A DNA stretch of 32,280 nucleotides from an uncultured Bacteroidales bacterium (GCA_964410845.1 CAYPJB010000004.1:1-32280), one strand, 5' to 3'. Counted from the stretch's first letter, positions 10,840-28,093 are shown. The notes: generated from the sequence alone by a model not told the origin. Translations and numbers: made by a program.

Positions 10840-12474
10840 ATGCGTAAACTTATCCTGCAACTCGAGCAAAGTCGGCTGCTAATCACCTGTCTCCTGGTCG
10901 CGTTCTTCACATTACTCTTTCTTTACATCGACCATTCACCTGTATGGCATACTGATATCTGGGCGCACTTAAAGCTCGGTTCGTGGATGGTGGAACATGG
11001 CAGGTTGCCTGAAGCTGAGCCATTCTCGCCCTTTACGGAAGACAAGCGATTGATTCCCACTGCCTGGCTCAGCCAGGTGCTGATGTGGAAGGTCTACGAG
11101 GCCGGAGCCTGGATGCCTTTTCGCTGGGCATGGGATGACATTACCCAGCCCTGTGGCGTTATCGCACTGCGCACCATGCATGCGTTGTTGTTGCTTGCCC
11201 GGTTCCTCTTTCTCTTCTGGGCTTTTCAGCGATGGGGCGGGTCACGTCTTACAGCTTTTCTGGGGATGCTGGTTTGCGCGGTTCTGAGCTGGAACCATTT
11301 GACTGTGTTGCGTCCGCAAGTATGGGGAGAACTCTGCCTGGCAATCATGCTCTTTCTTGTCAGTCGCAAGCCCCCCACAAGACTGGCGACCTGGTGTACA
11401 CCTGTCGTTATGGGGTTATGGTGTAACTTTCATGGCTCGTACATGAATGGTTTGCTGATCCTTCTGGGCATACTGGTAGCACGTATTCTTGTCGCTGTCA
11501 GGAAATCACAGCAGGGGGAAACCGAGGCTCTGCACTCGGCATTGGTGCGACGAACCTTCCGCATGTTTTACATCAGCATCCTGGTGGTGGGGTTCTGTAA
11601 CCCTTACGGGAGCTTCCGCTGGTATGCAGATACACTCGGTTTCGCTCAGAATGCCAATGTTCGCATGATGGATGAATGGCAGCGACTCGATTGGAGCAGC
11701 CTCACTGGCAGACTCTTCCTGGGATCATTATGCCTGGTGGTGCTGACACAGCTCGTTGCCAAAACAAAGCACGTTGCAGGAATCAGCCTGGGGCAGGGGA
11801 TTCTCCTGCTCTGCTTTGGCATTCAAACCGTCTTCTTCCAACGCATGATGCCCTGGTGGGCGATTATCTGTCCGTTTGTGTGTGTAGGCCCCTGGGCTCG
11901 CATCTTCGCGCTAGTTGACATACCACCGCTGCGACAATCCATCTTTCGCATCATCACCGAGATGGCTGTGGTGATGGCTGGTTTCTGGTGTGCATTTGCC
12001 TTCTCCAACGTGGGGAGCATGCTGATACACGAAGAAGCACCTGTTCTCAGCAAGATGCTGCACCCGGGAACGCCCCGCCTCCTTGATGTGATGGGAAAAC
12101 GAAAACTTGCCAACCAAATGGATCCTGCCATTCATGAAGCGCTGAACCGTCCGGGGGCTGTGATCTTCGCTAGTGAGACCTTGGGGGATTATCTGTATTT
12201 TACGGGTCGTCACCCTGTGGTCGTCTTTACACATGTACAACTTTTTTCTGAAAAGCATTGGGAGCGGTGCATGGTGGTAAAAGAAGGTATTGAAAACTGG
12301 GAGAAGTACCTGCAGGAATGGAATGTACAGGTCATCTGTGTCGAGCCGGAACTCCATCCGGAACTGGTGACACAGGTGAAGCAATCGCCTAACTGGATCG
12401 TCAAGCTGGACGAAACCACGTCAGGCAGTAAACCAAATCCGAAGTCGCGTCACTTTATCGCCATCAGGAAATAG
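10840..12474 (+). CDS. Polytopic membrane protein, possibly a GT-C-fold glycosyltransferase/polymerase
   Basis: 544 aa with more than 10 predicted TM segments. An early loop motif (DIWAHLKLGSWMVEHGRLPEAEPFS) resembles GT-C/ArnT-like enzymes. The C-terminal 150 aa or so are soluble. The functional call is weak. Confidence 0.6.
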   Translation: MRKLILQLEQSRLLITCLLVAFFTLLFLYIDHSPVWHTDIWAHLKLGSWMVEHGRLPEAEPFSPFTEDKRLIPTAWLSQVLMWKVYEAGAWMPFRWAWDDITQPCGVIALRTMHALLLLARFLFLFWAFQRWGGSRLTAFLGMLVCAVLSWNHLTVLRPQVWGELCLAIMLFLVSRKPPTRLATWCTPVVMGLWCNFHGSYMNGLLILLGILVARILVAVRKSQQGETEALHSALVRRTFRMFYISILVVGFCNPYGSFRWYADTLGFAQNANVRMMDEWQRLDWSSLTGRLFLGSLCLVVLTQLVAKTKHVAGISLGQGILLLCFGIQTVFFQRMMPWWAIICPFVCVGPWARIFALVDIPPLRQSIFRIITEMAVVMAGFWCAFAFSNVGSMLIHEEAPVLSKMLHPGTPRLLDVMGKRKLANQMDPAIHEALNRPGAVIFASETLGDYLYFTGRHPVVVFTHVQLFSEKHWERCMVVKEGIENWEKYLQEWNVQVICVEPELHPELVTQVKQSPNWIVKLDETTSGSKPNPKSRHFIAIRK

Positions 12475-12478
12475 CGTA

Positions 12479-13708
12479 ATGTCCTTGCCCTGGTTTCAGT
12501 CGTTGTTTGCAGAACGTATTGGTGGAGCGAACTACGGGCAGGGCACTGCCATTTACAAATTCGAGAAAATCAAGCGTGCAAAACGTGAAGCTCTGACACA
12601 GTTCCCCCATCGCACCCTGCTCGATTTCGGCATAGGTGAAAACGATGATATGGCTGATGCCAGTGTTCGTGACGTGCTCTGTGCTGAAGCCAACAAAGTG
12701 GAGAATCGTGGTTACGCTGACAATGGCATTGCTGCCTACAAAGAAGCTGCAGCTCGGTTCATGCAGCGTGAGTTTGGCGTCAAGCTGGATCCTGTGACTG
12801 AGATCAATCACTGTATCGGCACCAAGCCCGCATACGCCATGCTGCCTGCTGTCTTCATCAACCCCGGTGACATCACACTGATGACTGTGCCTGGCTATCC
12901 TGTCGCTGGTACGCATACCAGATACTATGGCGGCGAAGTCTATCCGTTGCCTCTGCGGAAAGAGAACAACTTCTTTCCTGATCTCAAGGCAATACCAGCG
13001 GATATTGCCAAGCGAGCCAAATTGCTCGTCATCAACTATCCCAATAGTCCGACCGGTCAGGTTGCCACGAAGGCTTTCTACCAGGAAGTCATCGATTTCG
13101 CACATCGCAATCAGGTAGTGGTCGTGCAGGATGCTGCGCACATTCTGCTCAGCTATCAGAATAAGCCCTTCAGCTTCCTGGAAATGGATGGCGCCAGGGA
13201 AGTCGGCGTTGAAGTGCATTCCATGTCGAAGGGTTTCAACATGATCGGCTGGCGAATGGGTTTTGTGGCTGGCCACGAACGCATCGTCCGGGCCTTTGCT
13301 GATGTGAAAGATAACAGCGATTCCGGCCAGTTCATGGCTGTTCAAAAGGCTGCTGCTTTTGCCCTGGATCAGCCACAGATCCCTGTAGCAGTGCGAAGCA
13401 AGTATCAGCGACGACTGGAAAAACTGGTTGCTGTTTTGAAAAGTGTCGGGTTTGATGCCAGCATGCCTGGCGGCACCTACTTCCTCTATGTGAAGGCTCC
13501 CAAGGGGTGCAATCATCGAGCTTTCGTCGATGCGGAAGATGTCTCGCAGTTCCTGATCACCAATCTGTCTATCTGCTGTGTGCCTTGGGATGATGCAGGT
13601 CCGTTTCTTCGCTTCTCAGTTACATACAGTGCTGCTGATGAAGCTGCAGAGGATCAGCTCATGAAGACAACTCACGAACGACTGAGCAGTCTGGAACTCG
13701 AGTTTTGA
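12479..13708 (+). CDS. Class I/II PLP-dependent aminotransferase, LL-diaminopimelate aminotransferase (DapL)-like
   Basis: 409 aa. The PLP lysine motif is SMSKGFNMIGWRMGF. YPNSPTG is present, and ENNFFPDL matches the DapL 'ENGFFPDL' region. It starts 4 nt after the upstream membrane-protein gene. Confidence 0.8.
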   Translation: MSLPWFQSLFAERIGGANYGQGTAIYKFEKIKRAKREALTQFPHRTLLDFGIGENDDMADASVRDVLCAEANKVENRGYADNGIAAYKEAAARFMQREFGVKLDPVTEINHCIGTKPAYAMLPAVFINPGDITLMTVPGYPVAGTHTRYYGGEVYPLPLRKENNFFPDLKAIPADIAKRAKLLVINYPNSPTGQVATKAFYQEVIDFAHRNQVVVVQDAAHILLSYQNKPFSFLEMDGAREVGVEVHSMSKGFNMIGWRMGFVAGHERIVRAFADVKDNSDSGQFMAVQKAAAFALDQPQIPVAVRSKYQRRLEKLVAVLKSVGFDASMPGGTYFLYVKAPKGCNHRAFVDAEDVSQFLITNLSICCVPWDDAGPFLRFSVTYSAADEAAEDQLMKTTHERLSSLELEF

Positions 13709-23996: not shown

Positions 23997-24419
23997 TTAA
24001 CGCCGGCGGCCCGATGCTGCAGCACCAGTGCGTGCCATCGTTGTCGAACTGTTCGAAACAGCAACTTGCGTGACTGCATTGCGAAGTGCAACAATACGAC
24101 GAGACACCATCTGCTGGGCTTGCTGCGAGGTCACGCCGCTACCAGTTGGAGGCGACACCTGGCCGGTTTGCAGGGCAACCAGAAGCTGTTCCGATTGAGC
24201 TATCTGGTTCTGCAGTGTTGCTATCAAGGCCTGTTTGCCGCCGTTGGTATTCGATGCGACAGTGCCAGAGCCGGAGCTAGAAACAGTTGTAGCAGTGCTC
24301 GTAGCACTGGCGGTAGAACTGGAGGCACTTCCGGAATTGCCTTGGCACTTACCTCCCTGTGCCAGGACTGGCGACGCCAGAAGCAAAGCTCCGAGCGCAG
24401 CACACCACAGTCGTCTCAT
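23997..24419 (-). CDS. Secreted Ser/Thr/Ala-rich low-complexity protein (hypothetical)
   Basis: 140 aa with a signal peptide (MRRLWCAALGALLLASPVLAQG). A Ser/Thr-rich linker and a Gln-rich helical segment follow. I prefer it over the antisense 272-aa ORF, which would overlap the upstream gene by 260 nt. Confidence 0.5.
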   Translation of the reverse strand: MRRLWCAALGALLLASPVLAQGGKCQGNSGSASSSTASATSTATTVSSSGSGTVASNTNGGKQALIATLQNQIAQSEQLLVALQTGQVSPPTGSGVTSQQAQQMVSRRIVALRNAVTQVAVSNSSTTMARTGAAASGRRR

Positions 24420-26133: not shown

Positions 26134-26229
26134 CTTCTGAATCTCGGGCGGGGTTGAACTCGTAAGATAGATAGTTCTAGTGTAGGGATCATAGTGATCC
26201 CGATTATGAACCTCTGATGGAGAATCGTG

Positions 26230-26778
26230 ATGCGTCATCTGGTAGCAAGCAGCCTGGTTCTGGCCATCCTTGGCCTCAGCATTCAAGCGGGAGAGAAACC
26301 TGTGTCAGACGTACTCAATCACACCGTGAAGAACATCGAAGGCAAAGACGTGAACCTCGCCGACTATCAAGGCAAGGTCGTGCTGGTAGTTAATGTTGCC
26401 AGCAAGTGCGGCTACACCAAGCAGTACACCAATCTGCAAGCCGTTTACGAAAAGTACAAGGACAAGGGTCTGGTTGTGCTGGGCTTCCCCTGTAATCAGT
26501 TCGGAGGTCAGGAACCAGGCAGCGAAGAAGAGATTCAAAAGTTCTGCAGCAGCAAGTATAGTGTCACCTTCCCGCTGTTCTCCAAAGTGGATGTCAATGG
26601 CGGGGGCACGTCAGATTTCTACAAGGCACTCAAGGCCAGCAAGCCAGGCGACATCAAATGGAACTTTGAGAAGTTCCTCATTAATAAAAAGGGAGAAGTG
26701 GTCAACCGCTTTGGCTCAGCCGCCAAGCCTGATGCAGGTGAGTTGCTGGCAGCAATTGAAGCAGAGCTGAGCAAATAG
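26230..26778 (+). CDS. gpx: Glutathione peroxidase (Cys-type), with signal peptide
   Basis: GKVVLVVNVASKCGYTKQY...LGFPCNQFGGQEPG...WNFEKFLI are the canonical GPx motifs. The N-terminus MRHLVASSLVLAILGLSIQAG looks like a signal peptide. Confidence 0.9.
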   Translation: MRHLVASSLVLAILGLSIQAGEKPVSDVLNHTVKNIEGKDVNLADYQGKVVLVVNVASKCGYTKQYTNLQAVYEKYKDKGLVVLGFPCNQFGGQEPGSEEEIQKFCSSKYSVTFPLFSKVDVNGGGTSDFYKALKASKPGDIKWNFEKFLINKKGEVVNRFGSAAKPDAGELLAAIEAELSK

Positions 26779-26815
26779 TTCACTAATCGATAGTGACATA
26801 GCATGAGACGATAAC

Positions 26816-26843
26816 AGCCTTTGGTGAGCGATCACCAAAGGCT
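26816..26843 (+). terminator. Hairpin downstream of gpx
   Basis: AGCCTTTGGTGA gcga TCACCAAAGGCT forms a 12-bp perfect stem followed by TTTGTC. It lies 38 nt after the gpx stop. Confidence 0.55.
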
Positions 26844-26897
26844 TTGTCATGTAGAGTAGCTGCAGCGAAGTGAGATTGTCGGCATGCAACTTGTTAG

Positions 26898-26963
26898 TGT
26901 CAGTAGTATGTCAATAAGTGGTGTATAACAGGTCATCAAAGTGTTCCCATCTTGTCTATATTG
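26898..26963 (+). repeat. Left array of phased 11-bp TGTC-type units
   Basis: The units are TGTCAGTAGTA / TGTCAATAAGT / GGTGTATAACA / GGTCATCAAAG / TGTTCCCATCT / TGTCTATATTG. A KGT core recurs every 11 bp. The first 35 bp are the reverse complement (29/35) of 27120-27154. Confidence 0.7.
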
Positions 26964-27119
26964 ACGTGTTTGTGCACAACTCTAGCGATTGTAGAAGACA
27001 AGTCGAATTTTCCGATTTTGTGAAATTGGTAAAAAGTTCCGATAATTCTTCTTGAAATGCCCATGGAGAGTAGTTACATTACCCCTCGTCGATGCGGGGT
27101 TGGCGGCAGGAGACGCCCC

Positions 27120-27198
27120 CCTGTTATCGACAACTTATTGACATCTTATTGACAGCCTGCCGACACCTTGAACACAGGTTGTTGACAAGTAGCAGACA
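27120..27198 (-). repeat. Right array of seven phased 11-bp units (TGTC on the - strand, GACA on the + strand)
   Basis: On the + strand the units are tgttatcGACA / acttatTGACA / tcttatTGACA / gcctgccGACA / ccttgaaCACA / ggttgtTGACA / agtagcaGACA. The spacing is exactly 11 nt, with unit ends at 27132, 27143, 27154, 27165, 27176, 27187 and 27198. Confidence 0.8.
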
Positions 27199-27256
27199 CA
27201 AGAGCTTCCCAGGATGGGACTTGCTGGGCACGGACGCCCCCCCTATTCTTGTGATC

Positions 27257-28093
27257 ATGCACTATGCCATTTGCAATGAGACCTTTGTGGGCTGGGATCA
27301 CCAGCGTATCTGTACATTTATCGCCTCGCTTGGGTATACTGGGCTTGAAATTGCCCCCTTTACCTTAGGGCCAGCACCGACGCTGTTACCCATGGAAACG
27401 CGGCAACAGTACCGTCAGCAGGCACAGGATGCCGGTATTTCGATTGTCGGCCTGCATTGGCTTCTGGCCAAAACCACTGGTTTACACCTTACCCATCCTG
27501 ATCCTTCTATTCGTATCCGGACTGCTCAGTATCTGGTTGAACTCGGAGCACTTTGCCGAGATCTGGGTGGTTCATTGATGGTGCTGGGGTCCCCACTTCA
27601 GCGGAACCGTTTGCCAGAACTATCAACAGTGCAGGCATTTGAGTTTGCCCTGGATACGCTGAAACAGGCCATGCCCCGACTCGGTGAACTTGGCATCCGA
27701 CTCTGTATTGAACCCCTTGGCACCGCGGAAACCAACTTCATCAATACCTGTGCCGAGGCCAACGAGCTTATCCAGGCTGTCGATCATCCCCTCTGCGTGC
27801 TGCATCTCGACGTCAAGGCGATGGCAGCGGAGTGCAACACCAACGATGATGGTGAAGCGATCGCCCGGTTGATTGGCCGGGAGATTGCTCACACTGGCCA
27901 CTTTCATGCGAATGACCCGAATCGCCGTGGCCCTGGTTTTGGCCCCATGCCGTTCGGCCCGATTATGAAAGCACTCCAGGAGAGCAGATATGCAGGTTGG
28001 GTTTCGGTAGAAGTCTTTGATTACTCGCCTGATCCCGAAACCATTGCCAGAGATTCGATAGCCAACCTGAAACTGGCTGCCAACCACCATTGA
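27257..28093 (+). CDS. Sugar phosphate isomerase/epimerase (xylose isomerase-like TIM barrel)
   Basis: MHYAICNETFVGWD...GYTGLEIAPF...GISIVGLHWLL...LCIEPL...HFHANDPN is typical of the AP-endonuclease-2/xylose-isomerase-like fold. The ORF-track start at 27092 would translate the repeat array and is rejected. Confidence 0.8.
   Translation: MHYAICNETFVGWDHQRICTFIASLGYTGLEIAPFTLGPAPTLLPMETRQQYRQQAQDAGISIVGLHWLLAKTTGLHLTHPDPSIRIRTAQYLVELGALCRDLGGSLMVLGSPLQRNRLPELSTVQAFEFALDTLKQAMPRLGELGIRLCIEPLGTAETNFINTCAEANELIQAVDHPLCVLHLDVKAMAAECNTNDDGEAIARLIGREIAHTGHFHANDPNRRGPGFGPMPFGPIMKALQESRYAGWVSVEVFDYSPDPETIARDSIANLKLAANHH

Follow-up and report, generated by a model that had tools for sequence, protein, structure and literature searches.

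Opposed arrays of phased 11-bp direct repeats flank a candidate promoter upstream of a ketose 3-epimerase-like gene: a possible bipartite operator

The DNA studied here, called the window below, is a stretch of 32,280 nt (CAYPJB010000004.1:1-32280, assembly GCA_964410845.1). It carries an array of seven contiguous 11-bp units in the gap of 478 nt between a glutathione peroxidase gene (gpx) and a gene for a ketose 3-epimerase-like protein. The gene order at this site is a PhoD-like phosphatase gene (− strand), gpx (+ strand), the gap, the epimerase-like gene, a gene for undecaprenyl-phosphate glucose phosphotransferase, pntA and pntB. As listed in Table 1, the gap also contains a second array in the opposite orientation, a candidate promoter between the two arrays and predicted leader RNA hairpins. 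The best solved-structure matches of the epimerase-like protein were D-psicose and D-tagatose 3-epimerases (about 1e-13), and every NCBIfam equivalog match fell under its cut-off. The protein was assigned only to the ketose 3-epimerase-like class. Judged by the named homologues of the epimerase and by the orthologous locus L002, the window is chromosomal DNA of a Gemmatales planctomycete.

The array next to the epimerase-like gene, called the right array, can be read directly and without gaps as seven 11-nt units, TGTTATCGACA ACTTATTGACA TCTTATTGACA GCCTGCCGACA CCTTGAACACA GGTTGTTGACA AGTAGCAGACA. ACA closes every one of the seven units, as GACA in six and as TTGACA in three, and the array ends 58 nt before the start codon at 27257. 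These counts agree with those of an earlier note on this DNA. In a periodicity scan of both strands with periods from 7 to 15, the phased run of seven ACA at period 11 was unique in the window. When the sequence was shuffled 300 times with its dinucleotides preserved, the longest phased run was 2 in 26 shuffles, 3 in 265 and 4 in nine, and it was never longer than 4. The phasing of the seven units that the earlier note had described is real and far above chance. Tandem Repeats Finder scored only 2.8 copies (27124-27154), because units 4-7 have little in common beyond the core.

The right array lies in frame within a mechanically called open reading frame (ORF), 27092-28093, and would there be an N-terminal extension of the protein. 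This coding extension from 27092 was excluded by comparison of the orthologs described below, between which differences of 33 to 44 nt in unit number and a 1-nt indel just before the ATG break the frame. The array is non-coding and the extension spurious, in agreement with the earlier note.

A repeat search found that the right array has a partner. The segment 26898-26932 is 83% complementary to 27120-27154, so that the two form a 35-nt inverted repeat 187 nt apart. On the + strand the left array consists of six phased units, TGTCAGTAGTA TGTCAATAAGT GGTGTATAACA GGTCATCAAAG TGTTCCCATCT TGTCTATATTG, which in their 11-nt frames begin with TGTC, TGTC, GGTG, GGTC, TGTT and TGTC. The right array is therefore one half of a pair of oppositely oriented arrays. 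The earlier description was correct about the right array itself; it overlooked the inverted partner, the promoter-like element between the arrays, and the fact that the PhoD-like gene is separated from the array by gpx and has a different, operator-like palindrome of its own.

According to 72 units taken from both arrays, the consensus of the unit is nnTTATnGACA. A9 and C10 are nearly invariant, and G8, T3, T4 and T6 are partly conserved. Most of the information lies in positions 8-11 (GACA) and in the T/A-rich positions 3-6: A9 and C10 have about 2 bits, G8 about 1 bit and T3 and T4 0.6-0.95 bits, while positions 1-2 and 7 have about 0.05-0.5 bits. The profiles of left and right units are the same. 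With a position weight matrix the strong units scored 14-16 bits and unit 4 about 6 bits; the other weak units retain the G-A-C core alone.

Table 1. Features of the gpx-epimerase gap and the gene 3' of it, in window coordinates.
Feature	Position	Strand	Description
gpx terminator hairpin	26816-26843	+	Arms AGCCTTTGGTGA / TCACCAAAGGCT, 12 nt each, 100% complementary; left boundary of the control region
Conserved sigma-54-like box	26880-26895	+	CGGCATG-CAAC-TTGTT, directly 5' of the left array; mean column identity 0.82
Left array	26898-26963	−	Six phased 11-bp units of the right-array type, inverted; strong units outermost (left)
A+T-rich central block	26991-27051		CGATTGTAGAAGACAAGTCGAATTTTCCGATTTTGTGAAATTGGTAAAAAGTTCCGATAATTCTTC; mean column identity 0.90
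Candidate sigma-70-type promoter	27052-27080	+	−35 TTGAAA 27052-27057, 17-nt spacer, −10 TACATT 27075-27080
5'-terminal leader hairpin (predicted)	27088-27131	+	P1 27088-27099 with 27118-27131, includes unit 1; inner H2 27102-27117, loop GCAGGAGA
Right array	27122-27198	+	Seven phased 11-bp units; units 1-3 strong (nnTTATnGACA), units 4-7 weak (G/C-ACA alone kept)
Invariant 3' leader	27207-27256	+	H3 27207-27219 (loop GGA), H4 27226-27239 (loop ACGGAC), C run, TATTCT
Epimerase-like gene (putative regulated gene)	27257-28093	+	Xylose-isomerase-like TIM-barrel protein, ketose 3-epimerase-like; Pfam PF01261 at 1.4e-36

The intergenic region upstream of the orthologous ketose-epimerase-like gene was recovered from ten Gemmatales genomes or contigs (L004, L007, L002, L006, L010, L012, L013, L015, L016 and L017). 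Two Joint Genome Institute orthologs stood outside this DNA comparison, and the loci from the pattern scan were fixed blocks of 8 kb. Across the recovered orthologs the epimerase is 70-99% identical, and its four-fold degenerate sites are 26-38% identical, that is, saturated. The intergenic blocks have mean column identities of 0.82-0.96 and the arrays of 0.83-0.84. Saturated synonymous sites beside conserved intergenic blocks show that the control region is under purifying selection. Conservation in related genomes was a test that the earlier note had set, and the array passed it.

The two arrays differ in their history. On the left, every ortholog has six units, each with G-T at positions 2-3, and the strong pair TGTCAATAAC-n-TGTCAATAAC at the outer end of this array is nearly invariant in most of them. 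The right array has seven units in the window and in L004, four in L002 and none in L017. Six further orthologs have about three units on the right side, with 11-bp spacing in L012 and L015 and with 12 nt and more in L006, L010, L013 and L016. Between the window and L004, whose synonymous sites are 38% identical, 31 of 33 positions agree in units 1-3 and 31 of 44 in units 4-7. ACA is kept in all seven phases although units 4-7 thus differ at 13 positions and the two arrays also by an indel of 2 nt. By this comparison the left array is the ancestral one and the number of right-side units (0, 3, 4 or 7) is specific to the lineage. Since the right array is absent in L017 and short in six lineages, the seven-unit form is a recent elaboration. 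A third phased array was seen in L002 at 427-492, upstream of the sigma-54-like box and opposite in orientation to the left array; it has six 11-bp units of the form nnTnnTGAACA, i.e. GTTC-N7 repeats.

The usual gene order in the orthologs is phoD-gpx-gap-epimerase. The gene 3' of the epimerase varies and may encode a sugar transferase, a PAS kinase, an aldehyde dehydrogenase, a phosphoribosyl pyrophosphate synthase or a superoxide dismutase. L002 and L017 have other genes on the upstream side as well, and the control region is still with the epimerase. Because the element stays with the epimerase while the neighbours change, it is the control region of the epimerase and not of an exopolysaccharide operon or of phoD. 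The earlier note had connected the array with an exopolysaccharide-initiation operon; this connection is not upheld, as a sugar transferase gene follows the epimerase only in the closest relatives and the element moves with the epimerase alone. A Gemmataceae homologue that is 59% identical to the epimerase has no such control region.

Outside this locus the element was not met again. About 170 kb of related DNA had no other array of at least four units and no other tandem strong units, a core-pattern scan of 185,579 species genomes gave one real match, which was the orthologous locus, and plasmid and phage searches gave no match to the array. The array is thus not a dispersed repeat, as which the earlier note would have reclassified it if dozens of identical copies had turned up elsewhere in the genome. 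A viral scan for TTATTGACANNTTATTGACA gave 16 matches, each of two or three units on an A+T-rich contig. One falls inside an ORF, and the matches are due to chance or to −35-like sequences. On the viral contig L031, ACTTATTGACA occurs three times in tandem inside an ORF (13625-13668), which seems to be a tandem duplication of coding sequence without relation to the planctomycete element. A full-text literature search for the 9-mer returned unrelated primer sequences only, and exact-protein look-ups with the window epimerase, using either start codon, had no match.

Like Tn7-type ends with their TnsB-binding sites, the array begins with TGT, has TGACA-type units and has a 35-nt inverted partner. 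The earlier note had listed transposon ends among its models; the form considered here is the end of a Tn7- or Mu-type transposon or a miniature inverted-repeat element with several transposase-binding sites. This likeness is superficial. The element occupies the orthologous position in ten genomes or contigs with saturated synonymous sites, transposase genes, a target-site duplication and further copies are all lacking, and the arms face inward around a conserved promoter. These comparative data refute the transposon model, to which we give a next to negligible probability. An invertible promoter was rejected too, since the orientation is the same in all ten orthologs.

The candidate promoter between the arrays has 9 of 12 consensus matches in the window. 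In the orthologs the hexamers TTGAA(A/C) and TA(C/A/G)ATT are 0.91 and 0.94 identical, and the spacer between them is 0.56 identical and always 17 nt long; L017 has TTGCAT-17-TAAGTT at this position. Conserved hexamers around a variable spacer of constant length are the classic comparative signature from which we infer a sigma-70-type promoter. From this candidate the start of transcription would lie near 27087, and the right array would therefore extend from about +36 to +112 and the left array from about −190 to −125. The seven-unit array is thus probably transcribed and lies within the 5' leader. In regulatory terms, the earlier note probably erred in placing the array just 5' of the operon. 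Eight of the ten orthologs keep a constant 131-132 bp between the second strong left unit and the −35 hexamer. The A+T-rich block that lies between them could be an UP-element-like region or could contain sites for further factors.

A second hexamer deserves attention. TATTCT (27244-27249; TATTTT in L017) stands 7 nt 5' of the ATG in all ten orthologs, with 6 nt in L004. The interval between it and the ATG is variable in sequence and has no Shine-Dalgarno motif. The hexamer may serve a second promoter, of the leaderless type, as its −10.

Several other promoter arrangements were tried and rejected. The sigma-54-like box is kept in ten of ten orthologs, with TGGCA[C/T]G-N4-[T/A]TGAT in relatives and TGGCACGGGAATTGAT in the most distant, L017. 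It was rejected as a sigma-54 promoter (GG-N10-GC) because none of the ten orthologs has the −12 C, with A or T at this position instead. A PhoB-type promoter in which the left array replaces the −35 has no conserved −10 at the needed distance. A leftward promoter with the outer TTGACA as −35 has 9 of 12 matches in the window and 10 of 12 in L006, and its −10 is not conserved in the other orthologs. At the left boundary, the equivalents of the gpx terminator in the orthologs differ in sequence (AACCCGGC..GCCGGGTT, followed by a T run).

If the leader is transcribed as predicted, it would be structured. RNAalifold and three independent single-sequence folds concur on P1, H2, P3, H3 and H4. P3 is a predicted helix in which GACA of unit 3 pairs with TGTG just 5' of the ATG. 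P1 has one compensatory change and a G-C to G-U variation that is compatible only with RNA of the + strand, the H2 stem covaries, and the closing pair of H3 is U-A, A-U in L002 and C-G in L017. In the whole predicted structure 97% of cells are paired and five pairs have a compensatory change, values that none of 500 shuffles reached. The 3' leader has a mean column identity of 0.96. Units 3-6 are predicted to form an extra hairpin in the window and L004. With units 1 and 3 in conserved leader helices, selection probably constrains part of the array both as DNA and as RNA. A long RNA stem joining the left and right arrays was rejected, as L006-type orthologs do not keep the complementarity outside the shared motif.

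The three conserved leader hairpins at 27102-27117, 27207-27219 and 27226-27239 all show GGA in the loop (GCAGGAGA, GGA and A[C/U/A]GGAC, respectively). GGA-loop hairpins of this kind are the signature of CsrA/RsmA-type binding sites. A direct repeat, GGAGACGCCCCCC (27109-27121) and CGGACGCCCCCCC (27231-27243), brackets the seven-unit array. Its GGA(G)ACG part, which the orthologs conserve, falls on the loops and 3' arms of H2 and H4.

These folds are the basis of a different explanation, in which the (U)UGACA motifs, P1 and P3 act in the mRNA leader of the epimerase and the 11-nt phase is a relic of duplication. The motifs would then be sites for an RNA-binding protein, or the variable hairpin insertion would tune the translation of an mRNA without Shine-Dalgarno motif. 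The conserved upstream promoter that sets the array in the transcribed region, the concordant folds with their five compensatory pairs and + strand-only G-U variation, and the extra hairpin of units 3-6 all speak for such an element. However, the left array, which is on the opposite strand, outside the predicted transcript, older and better conserved, is left unexplained. Units 2, 4, 5 and 7 keep the ACA phase without a conserved pairing partner, and the z-scores of the leader fold are modest (−2.6, −0.7 and −1.7). We regard an RNA-level element as possible but on balance unlikely. As the left array lies outside the predicted transcript and on the opposite strand in ten of ten orthologs, recognition by a protein at the level of double-stranded DNA is the simplest explanation.

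We consider with an even chance of being right that the right array is the promoter-distal half of a bipartite direct-repeat operator, which would control the epimerase-like gene through a cooperative binder. By analogy, the binder would be a winged-helix response regulator of the OmpR/PhoB type and the effect repression. Like the sites of such regulators, the arrays are tandem direct repeats with a period of 10-11 bp (exactly 11 bp in the seven right and the six left units). They have a conserved core of 5-7 bp and a less conserved A/T-rich tract of 4-5 bp, and strong core units stand next to weak extension units. Among the three models of the earlier note, the OmpR/PhoB-type direct repeat fits the anatomy of the unit best. 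The cooperative protein-binding operator that it suggested is the best reading of the array.

In the mechanism that we propose for this operator, one protein would recognise nnTTATnGACA, a TGTCA-type core with an A/T-rich tract, one unit per helical turn. It would fill the strong units first, i.e. the two outer units on the left and the three inner units on the right, and would then spread head-to-tail over the weak units where G-A-C alone remains. On one face of the DNA, two opposed tracks of protein, about 66 and 77 bp long, would then flank TTGAAA-17-TACATT. Protein bound 3' of the start, by itself or through a loop to the upstream track, would in the simplest case repress or throttle transcription as a roadblock or loop anchor. 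How much protein is needed for the effect would be set by the number of weak units.

Several points weigh against a bipartite operator. The arrays are clear of the −35 region, the usual place of OmpR/PhoB activators, and at neither promoter candidate does a site abut or replace the −35. The candidate promoter itself has only 8 or 9 of 12 consensus matches; if TATTCT were the −10, the right array would instead lie at −135 to −59. Unit 1 and the GACA of unit 3 are in predicted conserved helices, and part of the conservation could be at the RNA level. The right array is missing in L017 and has about three units in six lineages, four of which are off the strict 11-bp spacing. No regulator gene is conserved adjoining the locus among the orthologous loci compared.

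The closest described operators are those of response regulators. The class III operators of Streptomyces coelicolor PhoP are 11-nt direct repeats of up to six units, in which core units nucleate cooperative extension (PMC2275107). Like the arrays here, they have head-to-tail 11-nt units with two or three good cores followed by poorly conserved extension units. In contrast, the PhoP core is GTTCACC instead of TTGACA/TGTCAA, and PhoP operators lie at or near the −35 of Pho-regulon genes. Here the seven units exceed any described there, the inverted arrays flank the start at a distance, and there is no Pho link. The sites of Escherichia coli ArcA contain two to five direct repeats with 11-bp spacing, and the weaker repeats are filled at higher protein concentration (PMC3798270). 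The 11-bp centre-to-centre direct repeats are shared with our arrays, which have six and seven. Further points of likeness are the fall of average conservation with repeat number, a role mainly in repression, here a proposed one, and the opposite-strand position of some weaker sites. ArcA, however, has a TGTTA-type repeat, promoter overlap and a global regulon, whereas here the arrays flank the promoter and the motif is at a single locus in the DNA examined.

A more specific possibility is a Pho box. A planctomycete PhoB or PhoP would bind the arrays, and the epimerase gene, together with the sugar transferase gene where present, would be under phosphate-starvation control. The E. coli Pho-box unit, CTGTCAT-A(A/T)A(T/A), has a TGTCA core, a 4-bp A/T-rich tract and a period of 11 bp. 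The unit found here, TGTCAAT-AAnn, is close to it in sequence (TGTCAAT-AAGT is very similar to CTGTCAT-AAAA) and matches it in period, and the PhoD-like gene is syntenic in most orthologs. Pho boxes, however, replace the −35 of Pho-regulon promoters; the position differs here and the neighbouring phoD-like gene has no motif. As a partial test, with the pst genes outside the DNA examined, the phoD-gpx regions of the window, L004 and L006 were found to contain no such motif and to have the palindrome GGGATCA-N3-TGATCCC instead. The element stays with the epimerase where phoD is absent (L002 and L017), and TGTnA cores are common to many OmpR-family regulators, so that the motif is not specific for PhoB. 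The Pho-regulon link that had been drawn from the nearby PhoD-like gene thus fails: its region carries a different palindrome and no TGTCA repeats, and gpx intervenes. Control by phosphate through a Pho box seems to us clearly unlikely. The divergent promoter region of phoD and gpx has the palindrome itself as GGGATCA-TAG-TGATCCC (26185-26201); L004 and L006 conserve it, and it is probably an operator for a different, dimeric regulator.

The geometry of the arrays also resembles that of DnaA-box arrays, which would make the site an origin, a DnaA-titrating site or a DnaA-regulated promoter. At E. coli oriC, low-affinity DnaA sites form opposed arrays of 9-mers 2 bp apart, and a strong site nucleates a filament over the weak ones. 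Like oriC, the region has 9-mers with 2-bp gaps in two arrays of opposite orientation, here TTATTGACA for TTATCCACA, with strong sites that could nucleate binding to weak ones and an A+T-rich centre. The strong units match the DnaA box TTATCCACA at 7 of 9 positions, although this box is that of E. coli and may not be that of Gemmatales. Against DnaA, most units miss the CACA core, and G is systematic at position 6 where DnaA boxes keep C. The site shows no sign change of GC skew in six loci (the sign is the same on both sides in the window, L004, L013 and L015, and the skew is near zero in L006). The genes to its left are mostly on the + strand, so that forks moving leftward from this site would run head-on into them. 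The neighbourhood has no replication genes, and the number of right-side units, from 0 to 7 between close relatives, is evolutionarily labile. We consider DnaA-box arrays very unlikely; oriC or dif were rejected on the missing skew switch and the unsuitable gene orientation and context. The L002 match only seemed to lie at the start of a 5.8-Mb contig, an artefact of the fixed 8-kb blocks of the pattern scan. A literature search for a description of planctomycete DnaA boxes found nothing usable.

The earlier note had also pointed to ParR-type iterons bound by ribbon-helix-helix proteins, which would be a centromere-like or autoregulatory site. The parC site of plasmid R1 consists of two groups of five 11-bp direct repeats, one on either side of the par promoter, which ParR represses (PMC2241845). 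The arrays on both sides of a promoter and the 11-bp period resemble this site, where cooperative binding coats the clusters and represses. In parC, however, the iterons point in the same direction around a 39-bp core upstream of parMR on a plasmid, whereas here the arrays are inverted, about 160-190 bp apart, chromosomal and syntenic, without plasmid similarity. No parM, parR or small DNA-binding gene is downstream, and the target is a metabolic enzyme. The similarity of architecture thus stands, while the par genes are absent. A ParR-type partition or autoregulatory site is highly improbable, and a ribbon-helix-helix factor as the binder would be compatible with the arrays.

No transposase, partition or replication genes were found in the window, and no tRNA genes or matches to Rfam 15 at gathering thresholds in its whole length. 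Over 26700-27320 the sole Rfam 15 match was due to chance (E=2.1) and fell on the gpx terminator. Two sizeable ORFs elsewhere in the window, 10840-12474 (544 aa, + strand) and 23997-24419 (140 aa, − strand), have no Pfam match.

We can imagine, as an unlikely extension of the operator model, a lineage-specific Gemmatales nucleoprotein switch of about 450 bp, in which a single sequence would work both as DNA operator and as RNA regulator. In such a switch a polymerising protein on the opposed tracks would loop or wrap the promoter, the units would be reused as RNA helix arms in P1 and P3 beside the three GGA-loop hairpins, and dosage would evolve by whole 11-bp units. The locus itself is a real, selected and lineage-specific cis-regulatory architecture of a known general kind and implies no new principle.

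To our knowledge, almost nothing is known about transcription-factor operators, promoters and leader RNAs in Planctomycetes. With its TTGAAn-17-TAnATT signature, two arrays and structured leader, the locus is a compact and strongly constrained test case. If the binder is found, it would give the first defined regulator-operator pair for Gemmatales. The orthologs with 0, 3, 4 or 7 units would then form a natural series for the tuning of a cooperative switch by weak sites.

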